This document shows, in pieces, positions 24,581-60,471 of a stretch of DNA of 64,000 nt. A program made the position numbers and the translations under genes. The stretch is from Parcubacteria group bacterium (GTDB lineage: Bacteria > Patescibacteriota > Minisyncoccia > UBA6257 > JACRHW01), in NCBI GenBank assembly GCA_016217555.1, contig JACRHW010000017.1, forward strand, positions 5,093 through 69,092, given 5' to 3'. Each line of letters opens with the position of its first letter. Position 1 is the first letter of the stretch. Below the pieces are notes generated by a model. It was not told where the DNA came from. It did no database searches and was given only the letters and a program-made list of their open reading frames with translations.

Positions 24581-24653
24581 GCGCCCATAGCTCAGCTGGT
24601 AGAGCAGCTCCCTTTTAAGGAGATGGTCGTAGGTTCGAATCCTACTGGGCGCA
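24581..24653 (+). tRNA. tRNA-Lys (anticodon UUU)
   Basis: Cloverleaf GCGCCCA...TGGGCGC-A with anticodon loop CTTTTAA and T-loop GGTTCGAATCC. Confidence 0.85.
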
Positions 24654-24655
24654 CT

Positions 24656-25990
24656 ATGAACAAAAAAAATATTTCTTTATTTATTGTTATTTTATCAATT
24701 GCTGCACTTGCGGCATTTTATGATTATCCTATGGGGTGGGATAGGGGGGCGGATTATCTTACGGGTAAAATTCACCAAGCTCCTTTTGCGTGGGCGCAGA
24801 AGGTTGCTATTCCACATTTTTTGAACAAGCCCTATGTGTTGGGGTTGGATGTCGCAGGGGGTGCACACCTTGTGTATAAGGCGGATGTGTCGAAAGTTCC
24901 TTCTGGAGACCAGGCGTCTACTATGAGTGGGCTTCAAAACGTAATTGAGCGGAGGGTAAACATCTTTGGAGTAAGCGAGCCACGGGTGGAGACGCAAAAG
25001 GTGGGGGATTCGTGGCGTCTTGTGGTGGAGCTTGCGGGGGTTAAAGACGTGGGTGCTGCAATTGCGGCAATCGGAAGTACCCCCTATCTTGAGTTTCGCG
25101 AGGAGGGGGTGGAGCCGAGCACGGTGAGTGCCTCTGGCACTGTTGAAATAAATGGTACACAGGGTTTTAAGGCAACCAATCTTACGGGTAAATACCTTTC
25201 ACGTGCATCACTTGATTTTGATAAGACGACGTTTCAGCCAACAGTGCAGTTGCAGTTTAATAATGAGGGTGCAAAACTTTTCGAGGATATTACCGCACGC
25301 AATGTAAAGAAGCGGGTTGCAATAGCTATTGATGGGGTTATTATTTCAGCTCCTGTGGTGAATGAGAAGATTGTGGGTGGGCAGGCGGTGATTTCAGGAA
25401 ATTTTAGCCTTGATGAGGCAAAAAAGCTTGTTGCTAATCTGAACGCTGGTGCACTGCCTGTTCCCATCGATCTCATTTCCCAGCAGACTGTTGGTGCAAG
25501 TTTGGGGGAGAGTGCCCTACGGCATAGTGTGAAGGCGGGGTTTATTGGGCTCATTGTAGTCTTTCTTTTTATGGTTTTGTATTATCGTTCGCTTGGGTTT
25601 TTTGCTTCGCTTGCGTTACTTATCTATACCGCGCTTGTTCTTGCAATATTTAAGACAATTCCTGTTACCATTACTCTTGCGGGTGTCGCTGGTTTTGTAC
25701 TCTCTATCGGTATGGCGGTTGATGCGAACATTCTTATTTTTGAACGTGTTAAGGAGGAGAGAAAAAGAGGGAAGGGTGGCAAACAGGCTATTGAGGAGGG
25801 GTTCTTGCGAGCGTGGACATCTATTCGCGACTCGAATGTTTCAACTATTATTACGAGTCTTGTGTTATATACGTTTACCACGTCCATTGTGCAGGGATTT
25901 GCCCTCACCCTTCTCATCGGGGTACTTATAAGTATGTTTACAGCAATTACCGTAACAAGGACGATGTTGCGAATATTTTTAAAAGCATAA
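24656..25990 (+). CDS. secD: Protein translocase subunit SecD
   Basis: LGLDVAGGAHLVYKAD, a periplasmic domain and a C-terminal 6-TM bundle. The start is at 24656 because the track start overlaps the tRNA. Confidence 0.85.
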   Translation: MNKKNISLFIVILSIAALAAFYDYPMGWDRGADYLTGKIHQAPFAWAQKVAIPHFLNKPYVLGLDVAGGAHLVYKADVSKVPSGDQASTMSGLQNVIERRVNIFGVSEPRVETQKVGDSWRLVVELAGVKDVGAAIAAIGSTPYLEFREEGVEPSTVSASGTVEINGTQGFKATNLTGKYLSRASLDFDKTTFQPTVQLQFNNEGAKLFEDITARNVKKRVAIAIDGVIISAPVVNEKIVGGQAVISGNFSLDEAKKLVANLNAGALPVPIDLISQQTVGASLGESALRHSVKAGFIGLIVVFLFMVLYYRSLGFFASLALLIYTALVLAIFKTIPVTITLAGVAGFVLSIGMAVDANILIFERVKEERKRGKGGKQAIEEGFLRAWTSIRDSNVSTIITSLVLYTFTTSIVQGFALTLLIGVLISMFTAITVTRTMLRIFLKA

Positions 25991-25997
25991 TACTTCT

Positions 25998-26888
25998 ATG
26001 AACATTATTGGACACAGAAAATTATATTATAGTATCTCAGGCACTGTTATTATTATCTCCCTCGTTGCGCTTGCGTTGTGGGGGTTTAGGTCGGGGATAG
26101 ATTTTACAGGAGGGTCTTCGTGGCAGGTTCGTGCAAGTGGTATCGATGTTGTTGCGGTGACAAAACTTTTTAGCGAAAATGGAATAGAGCATGTGTTTAT
26201 TGAGCAGGGGGCTGGAGGTGAACGAACGCTTCGTTTCGAGGAGGTATCTGAGGGCAAGCACCAACAGCTTTCATCTCAACTCAAAAAAGTATATCCCGAT
26301 CTTGTCGAAGAACAGTTTTCGGTAATTGGACCTACGATCTCCGGCGAGCTTCGTCAAAAGGCAATGTTTGCTATTGTCTTTGTTTTGTTTGGTATCTCTC
26401 TTTATATAGCACTTGTTTTTCGTCAGGTTTCACGCCCACTTTCTTCTTGGGTGTATGGGATAGTAACCCTATTTACATTATTTCATGACGTAGTTGTGCC
26501 TGCGGGTGTTTTTGCCATCCTCGGGCATTTTTGGGGGGTGGAGATTGATTCAAATTTTGTAGTAGCTATGCTTGTAGTAATGGGGTTTTCTGTTCACGAC
26601 ACTATCGTTGTGTTTGATCGCGTACGCGAAAATTTGAAGCGTATTACAAGCAAGGTGTCGTTTGAAGAACTAGTAAATAAAAGTATGCTTGAGACGTTTG
26701 CGCGATCGGTGAACACGTCTCTTACGGTGGTACTTGTTCTTCTTGCTTTGCTTTTCTTCGGTGAACCTAACCTTAGATATTTCATTACGACCCTTCTTAT
26801 TGGTATTCTTACGGGAACATATTCTTCCATATTTATTGCGAGTCCTATTCTCGTTGATATTGCGCTTTTGAAGGCAAAGAGAAAATAG
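25998..26888 (+). CDS. secF: Protein translocase subunit SecF
   Basis: GIDFTGGSSWQV and a SecF TM bundle; adjacent to secD. Confidence 0.85.
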   Translation: MNIIGHRKLYYSISGTVIIISLVALALWGFRSGIDFTGGSSWQVRASGIDVVAVTKLFSENGIEHVFIEQGAGGERTLRFEEVSEGKHQQLSSQLKKVYPDLVEEQFSVIGPTISGELRQKAMFAIVFVLFGISLYIALVFRQVSRPLSSWVYGIVTLFTLFHDVVVPAGVFAILGHFWGVEIDSNFVVAMLVVMGFSVHDTIVVFDRVRENLKRITSKVSFEELVNKSMLETFARSVNTSLTVVLVLLALLFFGEPNLRYFITTLLIGILTGTYSSIFIASPILVDIALLKAKRK

Positions 26889-26891
26889 ACT

Positions 26892-27004
26892 GGCGCTGTT
26901 TTGAAACACAATATTCCCTGAGCGAAGTCGAAGGGTTTCCTTAGAGAAAGGCAGGCCTTCGACAAGCTCAGGCACTAGTAATTATGAGGTTACCGAACAG
27001 TGCC
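26892..27004. repeat. Family E composite palindromic repeat, copy 2 (reverse orientation, internally deleted)
   Basis: GGCGCTGTT ... CCTGAGCGAAGTCGAAGGGTTTCCTTAGAGAAAGGCAGGCCTTCGACAAGCTCAGGCAC ... GGTTACCGAACAGTGCC. The interior is the reverse complement of the copy-1 interior. Confidence 0.6.
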
Positions 27005-27016
27005 AAATAGACTTGA

Positions 27017-27117
27017 CCCCGTTAGAAGTAGACAAAATGTGTTAAAATCTTTAGGCTAAAAATGTGGTATCTAGATGTATTGAATCTTAAAAACGTTTTC
27101 GCTACTTCTAACGGGGT
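27017..27117. mobile_element. MITE-like element with 15-bp terminal inverted repeats CCCCGTTAGAAGTAG (family F, copy 1), flanked by TTGA/TTGA
   Basis: CCCCGTTAGAAGTAG ... CTACTTCTAACGGGG is a perfect TIR. The flanks are ACTTGA|...|TTGACTT. The second copy at 51688-51786 has TGAA flanks. Confidence 0.55.
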
Positions 27118-27190: not shown

Positions 27191-28309
27191 TTGACTTCAA
27201 AATCACTCTGTGTTATATTATCAGCATATAACCACTCTATGCAAAATAAAACTCTTATACAATTAATTCATGATGCGTTGGGGATTTTAAACAAGAGGTC
27301 GAGGATTATCATCGAAAAAAGATACGGTTTGAAAACCGGTAATTTTGTAACTCTTGAGGCGATCGGGCAGGAGTATGGCATTACACGAGAGCGCGTGCGT
27401 CAAATCGAGGCGGCGGCCCTTACCAATCTTAAGAAGCATCGCATGCTTGATGGTCTAGAAGAGCCCATCCAAAAAACCAAAAACCATCTTGCACAATTGG
27501 GGGGTGTCTCTAGAGAGGATGTCCTTCTCGCTGCCGCAGCTCCTTATTTTGGTGTCGAGGATTCTAAAAAATTAAAAGCTTTTTATCCTTACTTCTATTT
27601 TGTTATGGAGCAGTCAGGATTGAAGCACTTGCCAGAAAGTGAGGAGTTTCACTCCGCATGGTATTTAGATACTGCATCGTTTCATCGCGCCAAGGATACT
27701 ATCCAGAAGTTCGAAGCATATCTTGAGGAGGTGGAGCGTCCTTTGGCTGCACATCTCGTTTCAGAACATATCAATCTGTTTTCAAAAAGTGGTACGGCAG
27801 TGAGTGATGAGTATTTGCAGAATCTTATTTCACTTTCAAAATTGTTTGGAAACAATGTCTTTGGGGAATTTGGGCTTGTCTCATGGAAGGAGATTGCGCC
27901 ACGTGGTGCAAGAGACAAGGCATTTCTCGTTCTCAAAAAGCATACAAAGCCACTTCATTTTCGACTTATCACACAACACATTAATGAGGCCAAATTTGCT
28001 CCCAAAAAGAGCCATCCGCTTACCGTCCACAATGAGCTTATTAAGGATAACCGATTCGTGCTCGTGGGGCGTGGGGTATATGCCTTGAAGGAGCGGGGGT
28101 ATGAGGCGGGAACAGTGCGCGATGTACTCAAAAGCCTTCTTCGTAAGAATGGTCCTCTTCCTCTCGCTTCACTTACACAATTGGTAAGCGATCAGCGCTT
28201 AGTTAAAGAAAACACGATCTTACTTAATCTTCAAAATCGTCAACACTTTTTAAAAAGTTCTGATGGGGTGTATACTGTGAAGGGCGATAGTTCAAACAAA
28301 ACAAAATAG
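27191..28309 (+). CDS. Sigma-70 region-4-like HTH protein with a 300-aa C-terminal domain of unknown function
   Basis: The N-terminus RSRIIIEKRYGLKTGNFVTLEAIGQEYGITRERVRQIEAAALTNLKKH matches the sigma-70 region 4.2 consensus. The start could alternatively be the ATG at 27239. Confidence 0.5.
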   Translation: MTSKSLCVILSAYNHSMQNKTLIQLIHDALGILNKRSRIIIEKRYGLKTGNFVTLEAIGQEYGITRERVRQIEAAALTNLKKHRMLDGLEEPIQKTKNHLAQLGGVSREDVLLAAAAPYFGVEDSKKLKAFYPYFYFVMEQSGLKHLPESEEFHSAWYLDTASFHRAKDTIQKFEAYLEEVERPLAAHLVSEHINLFSKSGTAVSDEYLQNLISLSKLFGNNVFGEFGLVSWKEIAPRGARDKAFLVLKKHTKPLHFRLITQHINEAKFAPKKSHPLTVHNELIKDNRFVLVGRGVYALKERGYEAGTVRDVLKSLLRKNGPLPLASLTQLVSDQRLVKENTILLNLQNRQHFLKSSDGVYTVKGDSSNKTK

Positions 28310-28461
28310 GATTTACGCGTTTGGCGCATTTTTTCGTCAGAAACTCCGGTACAGAACGCAGTATATTTTTAATATTGCTTATTCTGATGAATGAAACGAA
28401 TAGTTTCGTTCATCGTTTTCTCCTCGAACTGCATCCAAACGCGTAAATCCTACAAAGATTA

Positions 28462-29715
28462 ATGCTTGAGGGAATTTGGTATAGCATACTTATTGTATGG
28501 GGATATGTATGGTGGCTGGCAACGCCACTCATACTTTTTTATGTTTTTTCTGATTTGTGGATGATGTATGTGGGGTTGGAGTATTTTAAGAGTATCGAAT
28601 GGGTTACTCTTGAGGTACGTATTCCTCGTGAAATTTTAAAGACTCCAAAGTCAATGGAGCAGATTTTTAGTGGAATGCATGCCATTCAGGCTTATATTTC
28701 AAACCTAGATAAGATTTTGAAGGGTAAGTTTCAGGAGTGGGTAAGTTTTGAGATAGCAGGGACGGGGGGAGGGGTAAATTTTTATATGCACACTCCTGTT
28801 CAGTTTAGGAATCTTATTGAATCACAAATTTATGCTCAGTATCCTGATGCCGAAGTGATGCCAGTTGATGATTATACACATCTCATTTCCCACAGTATTC
28901 CAAACGAAGAGTACGATATGTGGGGGGTTGATTATGTATTTACAAAACCTAGCCCTTATCCTATCAAAACATATCCACTTTTTGAGGATATAAAAGATGA
29001 GCGTCGTGTCGACCCTCTTTCAAGCGTGATTGAAACAATGAGCCAACTCAAAAGCAATGAGATGATGTGGATTCAGTTGCTTATTAAACCCGCCCCAAAG
29101 GAGTTTAAAGAGGAATCAGATGCAATTATTGATAAGCTTGTGGGTAAGGTGCCAAAGCCCAAGAAGGGTTCCTTTACGGCGTTCGTAGATGGGCTTCTCG
29201 AGTTTACATGGAATCTTGCAAAAGGGCTTGTTGAGTATCCAGAGTGGAAATCTCAGGCTGAGGCGCCAAAAGATGCTGATGCCGCAAAACTTACTCCGGG
29301 TAAAAAAGAAGTACTCGAGGCAGTAGAACACAAGGCATCTCACTTGGCATTTCAGACGGGGCTTCGATTGATCTATATCGATAAGAGGGATAGTTTTACG
29401 CGTGTGAATGTTGCGGCTTTGAGTGGAGGGTTTAAGATTTTTAATACTTCAAATATGAATTCCTTTATGCCAGATTTAATCACTATGCCAAATTCTCGAG
29501 GATGGTTTTGGTTGTTCAAGAAGCAGAAAGAATATATGATGAAGAGGAGTATTGTCGAAGCGTATCGATTGCGCTTGTTTCCCAAGGGAAGCATGGTAAT
29601 GTCGAGTGAAGAGCTTGCAACGATATATCATTATCCTAACTTAAACGTGGCCGCTCCATTTTTACGACGGCTTGAAACAAAGAAGGGGCAACCGCCACCT
29701 AATTTACCCATCTAA
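28462..29715 (+). CDS. Hypothetical membrane-anchored protein (two N-terminal TM helices plus a 350-aa soluble domain)
   Basis: 417-aa ORF immediately upstream of the coupling-ATPase-like gene. Confidence 0.45.
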   Translation: MLEGIWYSILIVWGYVWWLATPLILFYVFSDLWMMYVGLEYFKSIEWVTLEVRIPREILKTPKSMEQIFSGMHAIQAYISNLDKILKGKFQEWVSFEIAGTGGGVNFYMHTPVQFRNLIESQIYAQYPDAEVMPVDDYTHLISHSIPNEEYDMWGVDYVFTKPSPYPIKTYPLFEDIKDERRVDPLSSVIETMSQLKSNEMMWIQLLIKPAPKEFKEESDAIIDKLVGKVPKPKKGSFTAFVDGLLEFTWNLAKGLVEYPEWKSQAEAPKDADAAKLTPGKKEVLEAVEHKASHLAFQTGLRLIYIDKRDSFTRVNVAALSGGFKIFNTSNMNSFMPDLITMPNSRGWFWLFKKQKEYMMKRSIVEAYRLRLFPKGSMVMSSEELATIYHYPNLNVAAPFLRRLETKKGQPPPNLPI

Positions 29716-29922
29716 CGAGGGGTTAGGTTTTAGTGTGTTAGGTTCCAAGGGCTAGAAATATCATGATCGTGCCTCGTTTCCTAATAAATCCCGTTAAAGG
29801 TAGAAAAAATAGTTAGTATATATTATTATTCATGTGTTAAAAACTATGCAACTATCTAAAACAGTCGTTTGTACCTACCCCTAACGGGATAAACTAATTC
29901 CTAAAAGCTAGAAGCTAATACA

Positions 29923-31884
29923 ATGTCTGACGCACAATTTGATCTCGCTATTGGGGAGACGAACTTTCGCAACCAACGCGTGAGATTTGGTATTCGCCAA
30001 GACGATCGTAGGCGTCATACATATGTAATAGGTAAAAGCGGTATGGGAAAGAGCGTACTCCTTGAAAATATGGCCATCCAGGATATGGAGGCGGGGCGTG
30101 GTCTCGCATTTATTGATCCTCATGGAGATACCGCTGAGAAGCTTTTGGATTTTGTCCCAAAGTCTCGTATTAACGACGTTATTTACTTTGATCCTTCGGT
30201 GCTTGATCATGCAATCGCCCTTAACCCCATGGAAAATGTATCTATTGATCGGCGTCATCTTGTGGCATCGGGGCTTATGAGCGTGTTTAAGAAAATATGG
30301 CCTGATGTGTGGTCTGCGAGAATGGAATATATTTTGAATAATTGCCTCATGGCGCTTCTTGAGATTCCCGATGCAACACTTCTTGGTGTCATGCGTCTTC
30401 TAAACGACAAGGATTATAGAAAATATGTTATCGATCAGCTTACTGATCCTCTCGTGCGAGATTTTTGGACGAAGGAGTTTGCGCGTTATAAAGACCAGTT
30501 TCAGACGGAGGCAATTGCGCCTATTCAAAATAAGATTGGTCAGCTTACCATGAATCCTCTTATCCGTAATATTATTGGACAACCCAAATCGACCATTGAT
30601 ATTCGAAAAATAATGGATGAAGGAAAGATTTTTTTGGTAAATCTCTCTCGTGGGAGAATTGGAGAGGATAATAGCAGCATCCTTGGTTCTTTGCTCGCCA
30701 CAAAACTTCAGCTCGCAGCTATGAGTAGGATTGATATTCCACGCGAGGAGGACAGAAGAGATTTTTATTTGTATATTGATGAGTTTCAACATTTTGCGAC
30801 GCCGTCATTTGCTGCCATTCTTGCCGAGGCGCGCAAGTTTCATCTCAATCTCATCGTAGCTAATCAATACATGACTCAGATGGATGAGACGGTGCGAGAC
30901 GCCATAGTAGGAAACGTAGGGACTATGATGGTGTTTCGCATTGGTGCAGACGACGCCGAGTTTTTTGAAAAGGAGATGTTCCCTGTATTTCTTATGACTG
31001 ATTTGGTAAATCTTCCTCGTGCCCAAGTTATTATGAAGCTTATGATTGACGGGGCAACTTCTCCGCCTTTTTCCGCAGTGACACTTCCTCCGGCATCAAA
31101 ACCAGAGGTCAGTTTTCGTGATGAGATTTTGAAGGTTACCTACTCCACTTATTCTATTGCTCGTGAACGCGTAGATGAGATTATAAATGAATGGTTGAGT
31201 ACTAATTTTGTTTCTGACAAAGATGGTGGTGTCGATGGCGTCATTCCAGGAGGTGTAGCTCCCCGCGAAGGTGTTGGGGCAAGTCAAGACGTGGGTGTAC
31301 AACCTCAGCGTGAGATGTTTAACGCGGTGTGTTGGAATTGTACCGCAGAGACGCAGATTCCTTTTCAGCCCGATCCAAAGTGTGCAGTATATTGCAAAAA
31401 CTGTCTTAAACTTATTCAAGCCGGGAAGATTCTTCCACCGACGCGTCCAAGAGGTGGAGCACCTCTTCCGTCACAAGTACAACAGCAAAGCGCACCTCCT
31501 ATGCCGCCGTCACCACTACAAGCACAACAACCCGTCGTGAAACGGCAAGATGTTTCGTCTGTTCGCCAAGAAACTCCAATAGTAAAGGAATCACAGCAAG
31601 CACCTCGCCCACAATATGTTTCCGGGCAACATATGTCTTCCCAACCTCAAGCGCCGCAGTCTTCTGGGTCATCAGAGCAACCACCTATGCAACAATCGCA
31701 ACAAAACATTTCTTCGAGGTCACAACCTCTACAGGTACAACATTCATCTGCGACATCGTATCTCGACACTATGCTTAAGCAAGCTCCACCTCGCGAGGCG
31801 CGCAAGTTTGCTCCCCCAAAAAAGGAGGTAAATCTCGACGAGCTCAAAAAAGCGATTGAGGAATCTTTGAAGTCTGTGAAGTGA
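29923..31884 (+). CDS. VirD4/TraG/TraD-like (type IV coupling protein family) P-loop ATPase with a Q/P/S-rich tail and a C-terminal zinc ribbon
   Basis: Walker A is HTYVIGKSGMGKS. The TraG-D_C-like Walker B region is FYLYIDEFQHF...AEARKFHLNLIVANQ. The zinc ribbon is CWNCTAETQIPFQPDPKCAVYCKNC. Confidence 0.55.
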   Translation: MSDAQFDLAIGETNFRNQRVRFGIRQDDRRRHTYVIGKSGMGKSVLLENMAIQDMEAGRGLAFIDPHGDTAEKLLDFVPKSRINDVIYFDPSVLDHAIALNPMENVSIDRRHLVASGLMSVFKKIWPDVWSARMEYILNNCLMALLEIPDATLLGVMRLLNDKDYRKYVIDQLTDPLVRDFWTKEFARYKDQFQTEAIAPIQNKIGQLTMNPLIRNIIGQPKSTIDIRKIMDEGKIFLVNLSRGRIGEDNSSILGSLLATKLQLAAMSRIDIPREEDRRDFYLYIDEFQHFATPSFAAILAEARKFHLNLIVANQYMTQMDETVRDAIVGNVGTMMVFRIGADDAEFFEKEMFPVFLMTDLVNLPRAQVIMKLMIDGATSPPFSAVTLPPASKPEVSFRDEILKVTYSTYSIARERVDEIINEWLSTNFVSDKDGGVDGVIPGGVAPREGVGASQDVGVQPQREMFNAVCWNCTAETQIPFQPDPKCAVYCKNCLKLIQAGKILPPTRPRGGAPLPSQVQQQSAPPMPPSPLQAQQPVVKRQDVSSVRQETPIVKESQQAPRPQYVSGQHMSSQPQAPQSSGSSEQPPMQQSQQNISSRSQPLQVQHSSATSYLDTMLKQAPPREARKFAPPKKEVNLDELKKAIEESLKSVK

Positions 31885-31885
31885 C

Positions 31886-31921
31886 CTTGTATTTAGTATA
31901 TCGTATCTTGTATAGTGTATG
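31886..31921. repeat. Family D repeat fragment (copy 2)
   Basis: CCTTGTATTTAGTATATCGTATCTTGTATAGTGTATG. Confidence 0.4.
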
Positions 31922-31954
31922 AATCCGCCGCAGGCGGATTATATCAGATACTAT

Positions 31955-32524
31955 ATGTTAACTATCAACGATCTTGAACCAAAATTAGTTGTGTCAATCG
32001 AGGGTGATCCCTATCAAATTCTCGAGGTGTCTCATCAGCACATTGGTCGCGGAGGATCAAACGTGCAGACGCGCATTAAAAACTTGAGAACAGGTGCTGT
32101 TTTGAGTAGAAATTTTAAACCTGCCGATAAATTCGAAGAGGTAGAAGTAGAGAAAAAACCAGTGAAGTTTTTGTATATGAATAAGGGGGAGTACTGGTTT
32201 TGTGAGGAGGATAAGCCTGCCAACCGATTTACCTTAGCGTCGGAGGCGTTGGGGGAGAGTGCTATTTTTTTAAAACCGAATACTCCAGTCGAGGCCATTA
32301 TGGCGGACGAGAAGCTTCTTAACATTGAACTTCCTGTCAAGATGGATCTTAAGGTTGTTGAAGCTCCACCAAGTATCCGTGGCAATACTGCTCAGGGGGG
32401 GACAAAAATCGTAAAACTCGAAACAGGGGCCGAGGTAGCCGTACCTCTTTTTATCAACGAGGGAGACACTGTGCGTGTAAATACGCAAACGAAACTCTAC
32501 GTAGAAAGAGTCGAGAAATTCTAA
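31955..32524 (+). CDS. efp: Elongation factor P
   Basis: Start MLTINDLEPK; contains QHIGRGGSNVQTRIKNLRTG (loop region with the conserved K/R). The track start at 31919 lies in a palindromic repeat. Confidence 0.85.
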   Translation: MLTINDLEPKLVVSIEGDPYQILEVSHQHIGRGGSNVQTRIKNLRTGAVLSRNFKPADKFEEVEVEKKPVKFLYMNKGEYWFCEEDKPANRFTLASEALGESAIFLKPNTPVEAIMADEKLLNIELPVKMDLKVVEAPPSIRGNTAQGGTKIVKLETGAEVAVPLFINEGDTVRVNTQTKLYVERVEKF

Positions 32525-32525
32525 T

Positions 32526-32600
32526 ATTCCTTGAGCGAGGTCGAAGGGCTATTATACTTGTTTGTCATTCCCGCGCAGGCGGGAATCCAGTGTAAATAAA
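32526..32600. repeat. Fragment of palindromic repeat modules (GTCGAAGGG... plus the GTCATTCCCGCGCAGGCGGGAATCCAG hairpin)
   Basis: ATTCCCGC-GCAG-GCGGGAAT is a perfect hairpin, related to the family E interiors. Confidence 0.5.
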
Positions 32601-32805: not shown

Positions 32806-32866
32806 TGCCTGAGCTTGTCGAAGGCCTACCATAAGGAAACCCTTCGACTTCGCTCAGGGACTATAG
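32806..32866. repeat. CCTGAGCTTGTCGAAGG / CCTTCGACTTCGCTCAGG hairpin module (family E interior type)
   Basis: GTGCCTGAGCTTGTCGAAGGCCTACCATAAGGAAACCCTTCGACTTCGCTCAGGGAC. Confidence 0.5.
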
Positions 32867-40751: not shown

Positions 40752-42728
40752 ATGCGTACACTTGTAAAAATCTTTCTTTTTCTTTCTATTTTTTCTTTAA
40801 TAATTTTTTCTACCGATTTATTTTTTCCCTATATTACGGGTAAGATTTTTGCATTTCGTTTTTTCATTGAATTTGCTTTTATCGCATGGATTCTTGATCT
40901 TTTTTTGCGAAAAACGTTACGGTTCCGTTTTTCCGAGCCAATAGTGAAGGCTCTTCTCATTTTTTCCGGCTCCCTAATTGTTTCTGCCTTTTTTGGAGTA
41001 AATCCTTCGTTTAGTTTTTGGTCTGATTTTGAACGTAGCGAGGGACTATTCTCCTTTTTTCATTATCTCGCGTTCTTTATTATGCTTCTTGATGTGTTTG
41101 TCATGGATGATTACTATCGTTTAATTAAAGCATTTCTTATTATTTCTCCTTTTATTGCCTATTATCAGTTTTCTAATTATGTAAATATTGAAAAACATGC
41201 TTTTGGAAGAATTAATGGACTTCTTGGAAATCCTTCCTATGTGGCAACATTTCTTCTTTTTGTTTTTGGTCTTGGTTTTTATCTTGTTCTTAAAAATAGA
41301 GAACTGTTTCGCTCAACAAAAGACGTCTTTGTGTTGTTTGAGAACTGGCTTTGGTGTTTAATTTTATTGATTGACATTCCTGCCTTTTTCTTTACACAAA
41401 CACGTGGAGCATATGTGGGCGTTTTTGTGGCATTGGTTGTTTATCTTATTATGCTTGGGCGATATGGGGTGGCAAAGGAAAAAAAGATGGCCCGGTACAG
41501 TCTTCTTTTTCTGAGCATTTTTATCGTTTTGGGCAGTGTGCTTATCTTAAAAACAAATGTACTCCCATCGAATTTAAAAGATCCGGGAAGTTTGGTTTCT
41601 CGTTTTTCTACATGGAAGGCCGCTTTGCGTGGATTTCTTGATCGTCCTTTGCTCGGATATGGTCCCGAAAATTTTAACATTGCTTTTGATAGACACTATG
41701 ACCCAGTCCATTCGGGACTAGAGACGTGGTTTGATCATGCACACAATCTTCCCGTTGAGCTTCTTGCGGTGACAGGCGTTGTCGGTTTTCTTGCGTATTT
41801 ATATATTTTTTATATTTTTTTTCGCTATTACTTCTCGATTATCCTTAAAAAACGTCCTATCTATGAAGCGGCTCTTTTCCTTGCAATCCCTGTAGCATAT
41901 TTCATTCAAAATCTTGCCCTATTTGATTCTCTTACCTCTTATGTTTTATTTTTTACATTTCTCGCCTTGGCACGCACCATCGTACTAAGGGAAACCAATA
42001 CATATAGTACCAATATAGTGTATTTTGGACGACCATTATTTATTGGGTTGTGTTGCATCATTCTTTTTTTTGCCCCCCTTTTTGGGATATATTCAAACAT
42101 ATTTGCACTACAAAAAAACATGCGCCTTCTCGCCACATTTTTACCACCACAACAATCGTTTTCTCCGAGCGCAAAAGTAAATGTATATAAGCAACTGTTT
42201 GATTTGCCGGGTTTTGTGGGGAGACGTGAGATTTCTACCGCTCTTGCAAAAGATATATTCGATTGGTCTTCTTCTCGTAATCTTAGTAAGTTTTCCAGAG
42301 AAGATTTTGATGCTTTGAATGAAGGAATAAATATGAGTGAAGAATATCTAACACATGACCCTTCTCATATTCGCAATTATTATTTGTTGGGATATGCTTA
42401 TTCATCAATTGGGGGTTATTTTAAAGACAGAAAGGCTCTGATTCGCGGAGAGGATATCCTCAAAAGAGCAGATAAGTTGAGTCCTGGTAGAATAGAATTT
42501 CTTGAAGTTCTGATTAAAAATCTTGGCGCGCAGAAGAAATATGACGAAGCTCTTAAGTATTCTTTAGAAATTATACGATTGCGCCCCGATATGGAGGCGG
42601 GTCACCGATTCGCCGGAGTCTTTTATCAAAAGATAGGAGAGACAAAGAAGGGGAAAGAAGAGCTTGGCAAAGCATTATTGATTAATCCATCTTCAACCGC
42701 ATCCATATTTTTAGAAGAGAACAAGTAG
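40752..42728 (+). CDS. O-antigen-ligase-like (Wzy_C) membrane protein with C-terminal TPR repeats, paralogue 1
   Basis: TQTRGAYVGVF ... WFDHAHNLPVELL is a Wzy_C/O-antigen ligase signature. The C-terminal 200 aa are TPR-like. 658 aa. Confidence 0.55.
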   Translation: MRTLVKIFLFLSIFSLIIFSTDLFFPYITGKIFAFRFFIEFAFIAWILDLFLRKTLRFRFSEPIVKALLIFSGSLIVSAFFGVNPSFSFWSDFERSEGLFSFFHYLAFFIMLLDVFVMDDYYRLIKAFLIISPFIAYYQFSNYVNIEKHAFGRINGLLGNPSYVATFLLFVFGLGFYLVLKNRELFRSTKDVFVLFENWLWCLILLIDIPAFFFTQTRGAYVGVFVALVVYLIMLGRYGVAKEKKMARYSLLFLSIFIVLGSVLILKTNVLPSNLKDPGSLVSRFSTWKAALRGFLDRPLLGYGPENFNIAFDRHYDPVHSGLETWFDHAHNLPVELLAVTGVVGFLAYLYIFYIFFRYYFSIILKKRPIYEAALFLAIPVAYFIQNLALFDSLTSYVLFFTFLALARTIVLRETNTYSTNIVYFGRPLFIGLCCIILFFAPLFGIYSNIFALQKNMRLLATFLPPQQSFSPSAKVNVYKQLFDLPGFVGRREISTALAKDIFDWSSSRNLSKFSREDFDALNEGINMSEEYLTHDPSHIRNYYLLGYAYSSIGGYFKDRKALIRGEDILKRADKLSPGRIEFLEVLIKNLGAQKKYDEALKYSLEIIRLRPDMEAGHRFAGVFYQKIGETKKGKEELGKALLINPSSTASIFLEENK

Positions 42729-42776: not shown

Positions 42777-44753
42777 ATGCGTGTTCTTGTAAAAATCTTT
42801 CTTTTTCTTTCTATTTTTTCTTTAACGTTTTTTTTAGCTGACTATTATTTCCCCTATATTGTCAGCAAGGTATTTCCTTTTCGATTGTTTATCGAGCTTG
42901 CGACAATCTCGTGGCTCATCAATCTCTATTGGTTTCGTATAATACGTTTTAAGTTTTCTGAACCTATTGTAAAGGCTGTTCTTGTTTTTTCTGGGGCACT
43001 TCTTGCCTCCACTCTTTTTGGGGTGAACCCACTCTTTAGTTTTTGGTCTAATTTTGAACGGAGCGAGGGGCTTTTTTCTTTCTTGCATTATTTAGCATTT
43101 TTCATCCTCCTCATTGATGTATTTTCTGAAGATGACTACTATCGTCTTATTAAGTTTCTTCTTCTCCTCTCCCCGCTTATTTCTTATTATGGGTTTTCGA
43201 GTTTTCGGGATGCTAATACTTATCAGTATGGAAGAGTGTTTGGGGTTTTTGGAAATCCCTCATACCTTGCGGCATTTCTTATTTTTGTGTTTGGGTTTGG
43301 TGTGTTGTTGATTTTGAGAAATATAGAATTTGCTAAAGTTTTGAAGGATCCCTTGTTGATTGTCGAAAATATACTTTGGATAGTTCTTTTGTTGGGAGAT
43401 GTTCCAGCATTCATTCTTACACAGACAAGAGGTGCTTACATTGGACTTTTGGTTGGCGTGCTTGTTTTTCTTATCTTTCTTTTGCGGCAGGGAAAGGGGG
43501 TTCAGAAAAAATATGCTGTCGGAGGTCTCATTGTACTTCTTTCTCTTGTTGCGCTTGCGGGGTTTGTCATTTTAAAAACCAAAATAGCTCCGGCGAATCT
43601 TAAGGATCCATCCACACTTGTCTTTCGTTTTGCTACGTGGGGTTCAGCATGGAAATCATTTCTCGACCATCCTCTTTTCGGGTATGGTATGGAAAATTTT
43701 TCAGTTGGATTTGATAAGCACTATAACCCAATCCATTCGGGTGTTGAAGTCTGGTTTGATCACGCCCACAGTGTGATATTTGATGCACTTGCAAGCACGG
43801 GTCTCTTGGGACTTATTTCCTATATTGCTATTTTTGTAGTACTATTTCGTTTCTATCTTCCCGTGATCACAAAACGACGCCCGGTGTTGGAGGCTGGTGT
43901 ATTCTTTGCCCTTCCTATTGCATATTTTGTCCAAAACCTTGTTTTGTTTGATACCCTTTCTTCCTATATCCTTTTCTTTCTCTTTCTTGGTGTGGTGCGT
44001 TCAGTGTTTTTGAAGGAGACAAGCAAGAATAAAGAGAAAACTTTTTTTGCGGCACACCCCATACTACTAAGTTTTGTAGTGGTGATGCTTGTTATTGCTG
44101 TAGTTTTTGGTATTTATGCGAACTTTGTTGCTTATCAAAAAAATAGGGAGTTAAGGACCGCCTACACTCTTTCTCGCCAATCCCAACTTCCTCGTGGAGT
44201 GGAGGAGTATCGAGGATTACTTGATATGCCAGGATATTTAGGAAGAAGGGAGGTGATTAAGGATTTTGCCGCTTATTTGTATGAGTGGTCCGCAAAATCT
44301 GATTTGCGGTCTCTTTCCAAAGAGGATGGTGGTGCCCTGGGTGGGGGCTTGAGGACAGTAAACGATTTTCTTGACAAGGAAGATCCTCAATACCTTAATG
44401 GATATTATCTTTTTGCGAATACCTATAACGTGATTGCATTTAAATTGGGTGATGCTACCGTGTTTCAAAAGACGGAATCTACCCTAAAAGAAATGAATAC
44501 AAAGAGCCCAAATCGCATAGAAATAATCAATTTGCTTGCAGATAATCTTATTGCACAGAGAAAGTATGACGAGGCGCTTAGTTATGCGCTTCAAATTACA
44601 ACACTGCGTCCTGACATGGAGGTGGGGCATAGGCTTGTTGGGTTTGTATACAATAAGATAGGGAGGCGTGACGAAGCTAAAAAAAAGGGGGAGGAGGCTT
44701 TACGTATCAATCCAAGCTCTACCGCCGCAGAATATCTTAAAAAAATACGTTAA
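42777..44753 (+). CDS. O-antigen-ligase-like (Wzy_C) plus TPR membrane protein, paralogue 2
   Basis: Same length (658 aa) and architecture; TQTRGAYIGLLVG ... WFDHAHSVIFDAL. The 5' 50 nt are nearly identical to paralogue 1. Confidence 0.55.
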   Translation: MRVLVKIFLFLSIFSLTFFLADYYFPYIVSKVFPFRLFIELATISWLINLYWFRIIRFKFSEPIVKAVLVFSGALLASTLFGVNPLFSFWSNFERSEGLFSFLHYLAFFILLIDVFSEDDYYRLIKFLLLLSPLISYYGFSSFRDANTYQYGRVFGVFGNPSYLAAFLIFVFGFGVLLILRNIEFAKVLKDPLLIVENILWIVLLLGDVPAFILTQTRGAYIGLLVGVLVFLIFLLRQGKGVQKKYAVGGLIVLLSLVALAGFVILKTKIAPANLKDPSTLVFRFATWGSAWKSFLDHPLFGYGMENFSVGFDKHYNPIHSGVEVWFDHAHSVIFDALASTGLLGLISYIAIFVVLFRFYLPVITKRRPVLEAGVFFALPIAYFVQNLVLFDTLSSYILFFLFLGVVRSVFLKETSKNKEKTFFAAHPILLSFVVVMLVIAVVFGIYANFVAYQKNRELRTAYTLSRQSQLPRGVEEYRGLLDMPGYLGRREVIKDFAAYLYEWSAKSDLRSLSKEDGGALGGGLRTVNDFLDKEDPQYLNGYYLFANTYNVIAFKLGDATVFQKTESTLKEMNTKSPNRIEIINLLADNLIAQRKYDEALSYALQITTLRPDMEVGHRLVGFVYNKIGRRDEAKKKGEEALRINPSSTAAEYLKKIR

Positions 44754-46088: not shown

Positions 46089-49000
46089 ATGGGTAATTCC
46101 AAATTTAAAAAAGTTGCGACGAAAGTTGTTGCAGTAAGCCTTTCGCTTACTACCGCAATTTGGCTTTCTGGCGCGGCTATGGCGCTTCCTTTGGCAGCGA
46201 AAGCGGCCACTGTTGATGAGCTCATGGCACAAATCACTGCACTTCAAGCGCAGGTTGCTAGTATGCAGGCTCCAGTAGCTTCAAGTGCGTATTCTTACAC
46301 ACGCAATCTTACGGTGGGATCGCGTGGAGCTGACGTAACAGCTCTTCAGGATACATTAATCTCTGGTGGATATCTCAAAGTATCTGCAACAGGATACTTT
46401 GGTGCTTTGACTAAGGTAGCTGTAAAGGCGTGGCAGGCAGCAGCCGGACTTCCTTCAACAGGATATTTCGGTCCTATGTCTCGCGCAAAGGTAGCAACCG
46501 TTGGTGGAACACCTACCTCAGGTACAACACCAACACCAGGCATAACACCTACCCCAGGTACAACACCAGTTCCAACTGGCACTGGCTTGGCCGTAGCAGT
46601 TGACGCATCAAATCCGGCAGCGGGTAGTTTTCCAGCTGGTGGAAGTCAGATTCCATTCTTGAAATTGAAGTTCACAGCAGGTTCAGCGGATACAACCGTA
46701 ACTGCAATGAATGTATATCGTGGAGGACTCTCTAGCGATAACGATATCTCGAATGTTTATTTGATGGATGGTTCATCGGTTTTGGCAACCAATCTTGGTT
46801 TGTCGAGCGGAAAAGCTTATTTCTCTCTCGCAACTGGATTATTTACAGTTAAGGCGGGAACAAGCAGGGTTGTTACTGTTGCTGCAGATATTTCTGCAAC
46901 AAACACAGCATCTCATGCTTATACATTTGGTGTAAATTCAGCAGCTGATATTACTCCATCTGCGGGTGTTACAGGTACATTCCCAATGACGGGTAATACC
47001 ATGACAGCCGTTTCAGTAACAAATCCGGGACTTGCAACACTTACAGTTGCCAGCGTTTCAACAGGTGGTTCTGTAAACGCAGGAACAACTGGTTTCTTAG
47101 CTGGCCAATTCTCTCTACAGTCCGCAAATAGTGCAGTAAGTGTAAAATCTGTTAAGTTGACAGATGTAGGAACCAATACTCATTCATCAGATATCTCAAA
47201 CATCAAATTGATGAACGGAGGAACACAGGTGGGTGCAACCATTGTGAATGCAAATTCAGATGGTACGGTTGTGTTTAATCTTTCAAGCAATCCTCTACGG
47301 GTTGCATCAGGTCAGACAATTAACCTTTCTGTATATGCTGATGTTGTAGGAGGTGTTAATCGAACACTTCGCTTCACAGTTCAGCACTCTTATGATGTTA
47401 CCGCTACCGACATGACATATAATGTTGGTGCTGGTCTTCTTGGAACATATCCAGTACAGGCTTCTTCTGTAAGTATCAGCTCTGGCTCTTTGGTGGTTAG
47501 CAAGAACGCAGCTTCTCCAACAAACTATATTGCTCGTGGTGCAACCAATGCAACATTGGCAAAGTTTGACTTTAATGCTTCTGGTGAAGCAGTGAGGATT
47601 ACTGCTATTACCTATCAGGTTGGTACTTATAGTGCTAATCAAGAAAATGCAGTATGGAATAACTTGAAGCTCGTTGATGATCAGGGTGTTCAAATTGGAA
47701 CAACCGCTACAGCCGTTTCTTCTGATAGCGTTTCCACAACACAACACTCAACGGCCCTTACTGGCTTGAACTACATTATTCCTGCAAATACAACTCGTTC
47801 GCTTTCTATTGTTCTTGATACTGTATCAACATACGCAGGAAGCATGACAGGAAGTATTACTTCAATAACAGCTCAGGGTTACACCTCGCTTACAGCTATT
47901 CCAAATCCTGGTCCAGATACTTCAACACACGCAGGGAATGCTCTTAGCGCATCTTCAAATCCATTCGTTGCTTCACTTAACAATGGTGTAGGTGCAATTA
48001 GTAGTGTTTCTGGTGCACAAGGTATCAAAATAGGATCTTTTGCCTTGGCAGCAGGTGCAGCAGAAGGAGTAAATGTTACAAGTCTTACCGTGAAAACCGG
48101 TTCGGCCGTTTCATCTCAATATCGTAACTTGAAAGTTATGGTGGGCAGTACTCAGCTAGGTAATACGAACTCAACGCTTACTGATAGTACTGAGTATTCA
48201 GTTTCAGCTTCTAATATCATGATCCCAGTAGGTGGACAGATTGTTGTAGATGTCTATGCTGACACCGTTTCTGGTGCAACATCGTCAGCTGCAGCCGTTC
48301 TTCTTTCTGGTGGTTCAGCAAATGGTGCTTCAACCAACACAACGAGGACTCTTACTAATTCTAGCGGCACAAAGCTTACGAGCTCTGTTACTGTAACTGG
48401 TCAGGTTGATACTATAACAGCATCAGGGAATCTTACAGACGCGTTAGCTCCCTCACCTGTAGTGTCCCAACAAGTTGCTATGGGTGTAACAGGCGTGGTT
48501 CTTGGAACGTTCAAACTTTCTGAGACAACCAATAGCGAGTCAATTGATGTTACGAGCATTGTTGTAAATTCAACTTCAACATCTGCCAACGACATCAAGA
48601 ACCTTAGGCTTATGAATGGAACAACTCCAGTTGGTTCATCTGTGGCAGGTCTTCCTGGTTCAGGTGCACAAGCAACTACCTTTACGATACCTATCGATCC
48701 TGTCACTGGTCACTCTGTCTTTATTGTTCCTCAGAATAACTATGTAACTTTGAGTGTTGTTGCTGATACTAATGATGCAACAGGTGGTGCCGCTTCTAAT
48801 GACACCATAACAGTTGGTCTTGGTGCAGTTACTGGTCAAGGACATTCCTCGGCAGCACCTGCAAATGCAACACCTACAAGCGTAGACAGTTCCGCAACCT
48901 TTACTCTTCATCGCGCAACAATGAGTGTTGCCGTTGCTTCCGGAAGTTATGTGGATAACAGCATTACGGACAACAAGATCGTGGCAAAGTTTAGCTTTAC

Positions 49001-49379
49001 TAATTCAGGGAATTATGATGCTACTATCGCTACATCTTCTATCCAACAGGTTGGTGCAGCGGTAACATCGACTGGTGTTACCTTCACCTTCTTTGATGGA
49101 GACACGAATGCTTCAATCGCAACAACTGGTGCAGTTACAGCAAGCACTTCTGCTGCTGTAGTAACATTTAGTACTGCGGTAACGGTTGCGAAGAATACAA
49201 CGAAGACTATTATAGTGAAAGCGAATCTTTCTACTGCAAGTTATACCTATAGCAATCCAGCTAAGTCATATGCAGTCAATCTTACGGGTTTTGCCTGGGG
49301 AGATGGCTCAGTGACAGGTATTTCTCCTGACACAAGCAAGATTACTTTCCCAATTTCTGGTCCTTCAATGTCCCTGTAA
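46089..49379 (+). CDS. Large secreted surface protein: signal peptide, PG_binding_1-like peptidoglycan-binding domain, Thr/Pro linker, then about 8 degenerate 100-120-aa S/T/G/V-rich beta-type repeats (S-layer/adhesin-like)
   Basis: Signal peptide MGNSKFKKVATKVVAVSLSLTTAIWLSGAAMALPLAAKA. PG-binding domain RGADVTALQDTLISGGYL...GYFGALTKVAVKAWQAAAGLPSTGYFGP. Linker TPTSGTTPTPGITPTPGTTPVP. Recurring blocks (D/N)I(S/K)N(I/V/L)xLM(N/D)G(S/T). Confidence 0.6.
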   Translation: MGNSKFKKVATKVVAVSLSLTTAIWLSGAAMALPLAAKAATVDELMAQITALQAQVASMQAPVASSAYSYTRNLTVGSRGADVTALQDTLISGGYLKVSATGYFGALTKVAVKAWQAAAGLPSTGYFGPMSRAKVATVGGTPTSGTTPTPGITPTPGTTPVPTGTGLAVAVDASNPAAGSFPAGGSQIPFLKLKFTAGSADTTVTAMNVYRGGLSSDNDISNVYLMDGSSVLATNLGLSSGKAYFSLATGLFTVKAGTSRVVTVAADISATNTASHAYTFGVNSAADITPSAGVTGTFPMTGNTMTAVSVTNPGLATLTVASVSTGGSVNAGTTGFLAGQFSLQSANSAVSVKSVKLTDVGTNTHSSDISNIKLMNGGTQVGATIVNANSDGTVVFNLSSNPLRVASGQTINLSVYADVVGGVNRTLRFTVQHSYDVTATDMTYNVGAGLLGTYPVQASSVSISSGSLVVSKNAASPTNYIARGATNATLAKFDFNASGEAVRITAITYQVGTYSANQENAVWNNLKLVDDQGVQIGTTATAVSSDSVSTTQHSTALTGLNYIIPANTTRSLSIVLDTVSTYAGSMTGSITSITAQGYTSLTAIPNPGPDTSTHAGNALSASSNPFVASLNNGVGAISSVSGAQGIKIGSFALAAGAAEGVNVTSLTVKTGSAVSSQYRNLKVMVGSTQLGNTNSTLTDSTEYSVSASNIMIPVGGQIVVDVYADTVSGATSSAAAVLLSGGSANGASTNTTRTLTNSSGTKLTSSVTVTGQVDTITASGNLTDALAPSPVVSQQVAMGVTGVVLGTFKLSETTNSESIDVTSIVVNSTSTSANDIKNLRLMNGTTPVGSSVAGLPGSGAQATTFTIPIDPVTGHSVFIVPQNNYVTLSVVADTNDATGGAASNDTITVGLGAVTGQGHSSAAPANATPTSVDSSATFTLHRATMSVAVASGSYVDNSITDNKIVAKFSFTNSGNYDATIATSSIQQVGAAVTSTGVTFTFFDGDTNASIATTGAVTASTSAAVVTFSTAVTVAKNTTKTIIVKANLSTASYTYSNPAKSYAVNLTGFAWGDGSVTGISPDTSKITFPISGPSMSL

Positions 49380-51687: not shown

Positions 51688-51786
51688 CCCCGTTAGAAGT
51701 AGGTAAAAACATTTGTTGTTCGTCTCGTGTATATCATAGATGGTACAATAATGTAGAAAAATTGTTTTTGTATACTTCTAACGGGG
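51688..51786. mobile_element. Family F MITE-like element, copy 2, inserted into the 3' half of the split tRNA (TGAA duplication)
   Basis: CCCCGTTAGAAGTAG ... CTACTTCTAACGGGG. The flanks are AAGTGAA| and |TGAAGGTC. Confidence 0.55.
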
Positions 51787-60361: not shown

Positions 60362-60471
60362 GTCATCACTATAAAAGTACAATATACTTTTTAAGTCAAG
60401 TTCACTAATTATATAAAAGAGGTACACTGGGGCTAGTTACTTTGAAAAAAGAAAAAGGGAGTGTGACTGTC

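Follow-up and report, generated by a model that had tools for sequence, protein, structure and literature searches.

What does a coupling ATPase do on a chromosome where no secretion apparatus lies beside it? The question is raised by a stretch of 64,000 nucleotides (nt) from a Parcubacteria group bacterium (assembly GCA_016217555.1, contig JACRHW010000017.1, positions 5,093 to 69,092 of the forward strand), referred to here as the window. Three open reading frames (ORFs) of the same strand, given in the ORF list of the window as 27191-28309, 28462-29715 and 29923-31884, encode a predicted DNA-binding protein (g1), a membrane protein (g2) and a VirD4-like ATPase (g3). We propose, with a probability of roughly 40%, that these genes form a chromosomally fixed, two-partner type IV coupling protein (T4CP) motor that has its own DNA-recognition subunit. 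The three genes and the parts of g3 are located as follows (aa, amino acids).

27239..28309, + strand: g1, a predicted DNA-binding protein of 356 aa (Pfam, structural model)
28462..29715, + strand: g2, a DUF8128 membrane protein of 417 aa (hydrophobic N-terminus, predicted fold)
29923..31242, + strand: core of g3, a VirD4/TrwB-type ATPase without a transmembrane domain (Pfam, PDB profile search, hhalign)
31309..31407, + strand: g3 zinc ribbon, CxxC-x17-CxxC, aa 463-495 (zf_Tbcl_2 E 3.4e-11, TIGR04272 E 7.5e-12)
31408..31818, + strand: g3 disordered linker rich in Q, P and S (from composition; hypervariable between genomes)
31819..31884, + strand: conserved short C-terminal motif of g3, KKEVNLDELKKAIEESLKSVK, with the stop codon (motif survey of 67 loci)

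The g3 protein comprises 653 aa and carries a Walker A motif, GKSGMGKS (nt 30031-30054), and a Walker B motif, YLYIDEF (nt 30766-30786). The stretches YLYIDEFQHF and KFHLNLIVANQ, which an initial annotation made from the sequence alone had pointed out together with the Walker A motif, are both present in the translation. Among Pfam families, g3 matches TrwB_AAD_bind (E 1.2e-8, profile positions 12-310 of 387), TraG-D_C weakly and DUF87 marginally (24.1 bits against a cut-off of 23.2), with no FtsK_SpoIIIE match in the same scan, and its homologues additionally score T4SS-DNA_transf. When a profile of the g3 family (40 sequences) was searched against all PDB sequences, TrwB (E 2.7e-8) and DotL (E 2.8e-5) were recovered, while HerA reached merely E 0.05 and no FtsK or VirB4 chain was found. 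Consistently, hhalign aligned the family with R388 TrwB at 93.9% probability over 264 columns (TrwB 118-393, the middle poorly aligned), and its alignment with R388 TrwK, the VirB4 protein, was limited to the P-loop. An all-alpha domain, which coupling proteins of this type carry between Walker A and Walker B, would fall in the span aligned with TrwB. The profile comparison proposed in the initial annotation therefore groups the ATPase with VirD4/TrwB and not with FtsK or HerA: a housekeeping translocase of the FtsK/HerA type is rejected at sequence level by the PDB profile search and hhalign, as is the C-terminal domain of a split VirB4, for which only the P-loop aligns with TrwK. The N-terminus of g3 is not hydrophobic and the protein has no membrane segment, just as first described. 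In the g3 alignment neither Walker motif varies, nor do many further residues, and this invariance, together with the high identity of the core between genomes (56-64%), indicates an active enzyme under strong constraint. As judged from its sequence, g3 belongs to the P-loop ATPases of the VirD4/TrwB family and experiences strong purifying selection.

The C-terminal part of g3 evolves differently. Beyond approximately residue 425 the protein is hypervariable, with tails of 45-302 aa and differing composition across 67 loci. In the window, residues 497-653 contain 17% Q, 15% P and 14% S; this composition and the two zinc-ribbon matches support the Q/P/S-rich tail and the C4 zinc ribbon of the initial annotation. 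Of the 67 species loci, 25 encode the zinc ribbon; among the 120 nearest clusters, 105 have it. Specifically, the tail is closed in at least 44 of the 67 loci by the motif [VI][DN]xxx[LV][RK]xx[LI]xx[SA][LM], which reads KEVNLDELKKAIEESL in this window and also shows in the consensus of the g3 alignment, and in another 10 by the alternative ending [ILV][KR]xG[EDQ]x[ILV]x[FL]. The existence of two endings suggests two alternative docking partners across lineages, and a flexible linker that terminates in a conserved peptide would resemble a docking tail.

The second gene encodes a protein with a hydrophobic N-terminus of 35 residues (about aa 5-39, nt 28474-28578) that contains an invariant WW and P, a soluble domain of about 350 aa (aa ~45-394, nt 28594-29643) and a conserved C-terminal peptide, KKGxPPxNLPI, which is modelled with low confidence and is a further candidate docking motif. 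The protein had been introduced as novel; its 1,370 word-indexed homologues, however, all carry Pfam family PF26449 (DUF8128) in precomputed tables, whereas the Pfam scan of g2 itself did not report this family. The literature that we searched contains no paper naming DUF8128. We ran the structure prediction that the initial annotation had suggested for this partner. The AlphaFold2 model, built with 47 homologues, has a predicted local distance difference test (pLDDT) score of 82.8 and a predicted template modelling (TM) score of 0.77, and a Foldseek search with it places 13 TrwK chains on top (E 6e-6 to 4e-4). No TrwB, FtsK, HerA or ATPase-only VirB4 chain occurs among the fold matches, and one of the matching TrwK chains is 457 residues long, so we assign the match to the VirB4 N-terminal domain. 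Neither Pfam nor NCBIfam gives a CagE_TrbE_VirB or TIGR00929 match, and g2 has no P-loop, hence no RecA-like ATPase domain in the same polypeptide. Behind its hydrophobic N-terminus, this membrane protein carries a soluble domain predicted to adopt a VirB4 N-terminal-like fold. The VirB4 N-terminal domain is cytoplasmic in the R388 machine, which makes an extracytoplasmic location of the g2 domain unlikely; of the original description the hydrophobic N-terminus stands, and the large extracytoplasmic domain is unsupported.

The first gene begins further downstream than initially annotated. Its start is almost certainly ATG 27239, because TTG 27191 belongs to the first hexamer of a promoter-like site and an identical protein at NCBI has 356 aa.

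27191..27219, + strand: promoter-like TTGACT-17-TATATT with a TG extension (best of the scan, 10/12 positions; a consensus match only)

A sigma-70 region 4 lies near the N-terminus of g1 (nt 27275-27436, Sigma70_r4 E 3.9e-13) and is 39-40% identical to region 4 of sigma-A. Its recognition helix reads TRERVRQIE, and the pattern R-E-R-x-R-Q-x-E is invariant in 46 homologues. In sigma-70 these residues read the -35 hexamer, so that a TTGACA-like specificity of g1 is plausible from the shared sequence. Region 4 had been described as the only recognisable part; the domain itself is well supported, but it is followed by winged helices resembling those of the delta subunit of RNA polymerase (RNAP), among them a HARE-HTH domain (nt 27914-28090, Pfam E 5.5e-6), several of which appear in the structural model (pLDDT 90.8). 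Additionally, g1 has no sigma region 2 (Pfam, NCBIfam and model) and no acidic delta tail, its net charge being +14, and can thus be classed neither with the sigma factors nor with the delta subunits.

Do these three genes belong together? In a tblastn survey of 83 non-redundant loci, g1 directly precedes and g3 directly follows g2 where the contig permits, with three exceptions; the order g1-g2-g3 is kept in about 75 of the 78 testable Patescibacteria species loci, and four independently retrieved metagenomic contigs have the identical order. The g2 gene was found in at least 571 species genomes in a scan of one genome per species. A profile search of 1.84 billion representatives gave 3,547 g2 family clusters at 50% identity, 1,147 of them with E <= 1e-30, and these clusters are named only 'Patescibacteria' or 'Parcubacteria'. 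Among the matches listed, the named carriers are Patescibacteria, including Azam-, Lipton-, Yanofsky-, Wolfe-, Moran-, Magasanik-, Sung-, Terry- and Niyogibacteria; the labels 'Saccharibacteria', 'Bdellovibrionales' and 'Bathyarchaeia' on some metagenome-assembled contigs that bear g2 are probably unreliable. The triad is near-universal in the lineages sampled. Identity between genomes is 33-48% for g2 and 31-48% for g1, and the co-conservation of g1 and g3 with g2 across species means that a dedicated system exists. The neighbourhood survey that the initial annotation had called for, and for which it had named as the refuting outcome an FtsK/HerA-type ATPase with neighbours that are not co-conserved, thus gave co-conserved neighbours around a VirD4/TrwB-type ATPase. 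In relatives, g2 and g3 are separated by 3-12 nt or overlap by 4 nt, suggesting co-translation, and the g1-g2 spacers measure 3-71 nt. The spacers of this window are wider, 152 nt between g1 and g2 and 207 nt between g2 and g3, owing to small inverted-repeat elements. In three loci (L008, L034 and L072) g1-g2 is kept and the ATPase gene does not follow directly, its place being taken by NusA-like, unknown or other genes; the ATPase gene may have been relocated or lost there.

The surroundings of the triad are of a housekeeping kind. On the same strand, the upstream neighbour is SecF in 46 and SecD in 43 of the 83 related loci, and the order secD-secF-g1-g2-g3 of the window recurs in loci L001, L004 and L087.

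24656..26888, + strand: secD-secF, the upstream neighbour kept in relatives (context; a functional link is not implied)

Downstream neighbours differ between loci and include efp in either orientation, mnmA and trmD; in the window the elongation factor P (EF-P) ORF (31919-32524) follows g3 after a spacer of 34 nt. The names SecD, SecF and EF-P come from the translations, with matching Pfam domains at the same positions in relatives. The G+C content of the module matches its surroundings, and overall the module looks like a chromosomal core machine and not like the remnant of a mobile element.

Taken together, these data allow us to outline how the triad might work. In our proposal, g2 would supply in trans the membrane anchor that g3 lacks, together with an assembly platform, and would keep g3, as a hexamer, on the cytoplasmic side of the membrane. 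Cryo-electron microscopy of the R388 machine reportedly shows that the VirB4 N-terminal domain binds VirB3, VirB8 and the neighbouring VirB4; given these contacts, g2 most likely docks the motor on the chromosomal type IV secretion system (T4SS) of the lineage, encoded elsewhere. The g1 protein would bind DNA, probably at TTGACA-like sites, through its sigma-identical recognition helix, and would pass a DNA or nucleoprotein substrate to the g3 motor. The zinc ribbon and the terminal tail motif of g3 would probably capture g1. F TraD binds TraM through its C-terminal tail, and the capture of g1 by the g3 tail would resemble this interaction. ATP hydrolysis would then drive the substrate to the membrane channel. 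No relaxase is linked to the module, which speaks against classical conjugation.

Published surveys set the frame for this proposal. Of 3,035 Patescibacteria assemblies, 2,918 encode VirD4-type T4CPs and 2,417 encode VirB4; the T4CP genes number 5,713, just 148 of which lie near virB4, and relaxases are nearly absent from Patescibacteria (109 genes) (PMC12102498). The difference in prevalence between T4CP (96%) and VirB4 (80%) does not separate the models, as two paralogues, each detected at 0.8, would give 0.96. The main text of the Cell 2023 transposon-sequencing paper does not mention VirD4, VirB4, FtsK or 'coupling protein'. As a whole, the published record agrees with a T4SS-docked motor but does not decide the matter.

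Several observations weigh against such a motor. No T4SS gene lies inside the 64-kb window, as judged by a P-loop scan and by Pfam on the larger ORFs. More precisely, no VirB4 adjoins the module: apart from g3, a P-loop is present in just two ORFs of 150 aa or more, ClpB and one of 260 aa, and about 23 larger ORFs scanned against Pfam contain no relaxase, pilin, integrase or VirB family, in keeping with the initial statement that no VirB4, relaxase or pilus genes are adjacent. The TM-scores between g2 and TrwK are just 0.33-0.40, and g2 has no sequence similarity to VirB4 in a profile search against the PDB, in Pfam scans of 47 members or in hhalign against TrwK (0.2%); the claim for g2 and VirB4 is accordingly one of fold similarity and not of proven homology. 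Moreover, the assignment to the VirB4 N-terminal domain is drawn from which chains match the model and not from a residue alignment. The sigma-like and delta-like domains of g1 could act on RNAP and merely regulate the operon. Finally, a t4cp homologue in S. epibionticum, not necessarily an orthologue of g3, is non-essential while the T4SS is essential, and exaptation has been proposed (PMC12102498).

The same setting admits a motor that works without any T4SS, and this is the main rival, which we consider possible but unlikely. Here g2 would anchor the hexamer and g1 would act as a sequence-reading winged helix, as FtsK-gamma and the winged helix-turn-helix of Streptomyces TraB do; such a stand-alone translocase of double-stranded DNA would serve chromosome segregation, the clearing of DNA at division, or DNA transfer across the envelope in either direction. 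The T4CP family is the sister of the FtsK family, and TraB works without a relaxase and without a T4SS. The housekeeping setting, the very highly conserved g3 core, the lack of a T4SS gene in the window and the co-conservation of an HTH/winged-helix g1 all agree with this scheme, as does the finding that 148 of 5,713 T4CPs lie near virB4, for which exaptation was raised by the authors (PMC12102498). Nine of the 83 loci, L001 and L004 included, also have a same-strand comEC gene (DUF4131 and Competence domains) roughly 5 kb downstream, usually after mnmA; this linkage is weak and may be synteny only. On the other side, the g3 sequence matches TrwB and DotL rather than FtsK, the VirB4-N-terminal-like partner points toward a T4SS, ftsK is mentioned in a paper on the Saccharibacteria strain TM7x, and a sigma-type reader of -35 elements would find sites chromosome-wide instead of polar guide sequences.

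A different division of labour is suggested by g1 itself. Its region 4, 39-40% identical to that of the primary sigma factor, and its RNAP-delta-like HARE-HTH domain would suit a chimeric factor competing for -35 elements or for the beta flap, and the promoter-like site lies directly upstream of g1. In that case g1 would be only a transcription factor of the operon or an RNAP-binding factor, its link to g2-g3 would be regulatory rather than mechanistic, and g2-g3 would be a membrane motor for proteins or another non-DNA substrate. Protein effectors are what many coupling proteins of the VirD4 and DotL kinds recruit, and the same-strand secDF synteny (at least 46 of 83 loci) would fit such a role. 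We find this arrangement doubtful: a dedicated regulator that stays with its targets over hundreds of species at 31-45% identity would be unusual, g3 often bears a zinc ribbon, whose binding of nucleic acid is itself an assumption, the secDF adjacency may be just inherited synteny, and neither candidate protein substrates nor chaperones accompany the module.

Returning to the T4SS-docked motor, a more specific form of it concerns the way these bacteria live. Patescibacteria are reported to acquire host RNA and to have tubes resembling a T4SS where they meet the host (bioRxiv 10.64898/2026.06.21.733656). It is conceivable, but quite improbable in our estimate, that the triad is the nucleic-acid-handling motor of the host-feeding apparatus of Patescibacteria. 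The T4CP would have been repurposed through an anchor that mimics the VirB4 N-terminus and would move host nucleic acid in or out through the essential chromosomal T4SS or pilus, with g1 and the zinc ribbon of g3 as the nucleic-acid grips. The near-universal presence, the high conservation and the lack of a linked relaxase are compatible with this role. If this were true, the triad would belong to the core machinery of the epibiotic lifestyle and would define the lineage, instead of being a relic of conjugation.

Could the locus nevertheless be a decayed integrative or conjugative element bounded by repeats, as the initial annotation had allowed? A T4CP-like gene without a T4SS and the repeats on the left flank are what this explanation has in its favour. 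One repeated element, about 100 nt long, is present in three copies.

27016..27117, strand not assigned: dispersed inverted-repeat element of ~100 nt, copy 1 (repeat search; not a module boundary)
29788..29890, strand not assigned: the same element, copy 2 (inserted in the g2-g3 spacer)
51689..51785, strand not assigned: the same element, copy 3 (~20 kb from the module)

The ends of this element are the inverted repeats CCCGTTAGAAGTAG ... CTACTTCTAACGGG, and its copies lie just upstream of g1, g3 and tRNA-Tyr. It is absent from the g2-g3 spacer of relatives and looks like a miniature inverted-repeat transposable element or a promoter-cassette-like repeat of the source genome. The left repeats are therefore real but dispersed, one copy sits inside the module and another 20 kb away, and at position 31886, named as the right border, there is just the short spacer to efp with one weak 17-nt repeat match. 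Relatives keep the three genes without such elements, so the repeats do not delimit the module. Furthermore, the neighbours of the triad are constant in genomes that are just 33-48% identical, the three genes are intact with invariant ATPase motifs, the G+C content is unremarkable, and no integrase or relaxase was found among the scanned ORFs of the window. With housekeeping synteny and at least 571 species genomes besides, a mobile-element remnant is scarcely credible; we reject it on the conserved synteny, the intact genes and the dispersed repeats.

Domain matches also bring anti-phage defence to mind, in the form of an ATPase akin to mad8 of MADS or to HerA and a sigma-like sensor akin to MzaA. 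PADLOC matches g3 to mad8 (E 7.8e-16) and weakly to HerA, and g1 to MzaA (E 7.4e-10), which is also the top NCBIfam match of g1. For MzaA, however, the similarity is confined to the generic region 4, at 66 bits against a cut-off of 800. MADS is an eight-gene operon, and the window contains none of the other seven mad genes, no Mza partner and no methylase or nuclease. The fixed position, near-universal presence and very high conservation of the triad are the opposite of what defence islands display. A defence role is thus very improbable and is rejected, the PADLOC matches being at domain level only.

Another structured element occupies the g1-g2 spacer.

28307..28452, + strand: structured element of 146 nt (perfect 18-nt terminal inverted repeats, RNA fold)

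It folds at -57.4 kcal/mol (z = -8.1) and includes an internal terminator-like hairpin (28385-28415) followed by TTTT. As a single copy in the window that is not found in relatives, it is lineage-specific; a palindromic insertion and an attenuator acting between g1 and g2-g3 are both conceivable identities for it. Additionally, a motif resembling repetitive extragenic palindromes, CCCTGAGCGAAGTCGAAGGG, occurs at 26916-26935 (+), 32529-32548 (+) and 32840-32859 (-), three copies against zero expected. The last two are an inverted pair around approximately 330 nt downstream of efp, a region that gives the spurious ORFs 'LRQAQAL...' and 'PELVEGL...'.

The rest of the window adds context. A tRNA-Lys gene (24581-24654) precedes the SecD/SecF ORFs and overlaps the listed SecD start at 24623; the true start is probably ATG 24656. 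Further out, Pfam on the larger ORFs identifies leucyl-tRNA synthetase, TrmD, HtrA, ClpB, serine hydroxymethyltransferase and IMP dehydrogenase. Two tandem paralogues of 658 aa (40752-42728 and 42777-44753) each have a Wzy_C (O-antigen ligase-like) domain, the second also a C-terminal TPR. The sole Pfam domain of a 1,096-aa ORF (46089-49379) is PG_binding_1, and the ORFs at 5267-7744 (825 aa) and 60442-62607 (721 aa) have no Pfam match at E <= 1e-4 and no P-loop.

Patescibacteria are tiny, host-attached and host-dependent bacteria that make up much of bacterial diversity and rely on an essential T4SS. In this light, one orphan T4CP is now placed in a fixed three-gene operon in which each partner has a testable role, and DUF8128 receives its first structural assignment, a predicted VirB4 N-terminal-like fold. 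The orphan ATPase thereby becomes a defined candidate complex that bears on what these bacteria move across their envelope.

How does the triad compare with known systems? It resembles FtsK/SpoIIIE and Streptomyces TraB in joining an ATPase of the same superfamily with a putative membrane anchor (g3/g2) to a candidate sequence-reading winged helix (g1). Neither FtsK/SpoIIIE nor TraB needs a relaxase or a pilus. In contrast to FtsK and TraB, the g3 sequence is nearest to TrwB and DotL, and in the triad anchoring and DNA reading would fall to two further polypeptides. With TrwB/VirD4 of R388, g3 shares a homologous nucleotide-binding domain, but it has no N-terminal membrane domain and bears a zinc ribbon and a disordered tail. 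TrwA binds DNA, and accessory proteins of the TrwA type are ribbon-helix-helix proteins. R388 likewise has a DNA-binding accessory gene beside the ATPase gene (trwA next to trwB in record NC_028464); unlike the TrwA-TrwB-TrwC set, however, the triad has no linked relaxase or oriT, and its accessory protein g1 combines sigma region 4 with winged helices.

The g2 protein recalls VirB4 (TrwK) and VirB3 in that a soluble domain with a predicted VirB4 N-terminal fold is placed behind a short membrane segment, a layout also resembled by VirB3-VirB4 fusions. It differs from VirB4 in having no ATPase domain and no detectable VirB4 sequence similarity. TrsD, which is common in Patescibacteria, is a free-standing remote homologue of the VirB4 N-terminus, and 1,664 of 2,272 TrsD homologues adjoin virB4 (PMC12102498), whereas g2 adjoins a VirD4-type ATPase far from any virB4.

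A rare but recognised subclass of T4CPs dispenses with its own membrane domain and relies on a separate membrane protein, as exemplified by TraJ/TraI of pIP501 (PMC7434980). Like TraJ, g3 is a soluble VirD4-family protein encoded beside a membrane protein, and in pIP501 this partner is thought to tether the ATPase (PMC7434980). Unlike the small TraI, which is encoded in a plasmid tra operon (PMC7434980), g2 has 417 aa and a predicted VirB4-N-terminal-like fold. The module is chromosomal and phylum-wide, has no linked relaxase and is surrounded by secDF, efp, mnmA and trmD instead of a conjugative operon, and it includes a constant third member, the sigma-4/winged-helix protein g1. A 2025 survey counted about two orphan VirD4-like coupling proteins per Patescibacteria genome and suggested exaptation (PMC12102498); the literature that we searched holds no account of the triad, of a VirB4-like DUF8128 fold or of a sigma-4/HARE-HTH partner. 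Orphan T4CPs of Patescibacteria and DUF8128 as a Pfam family were already known, and what appears new, as far as that literature goes, is the partner genes and their fixed operon.

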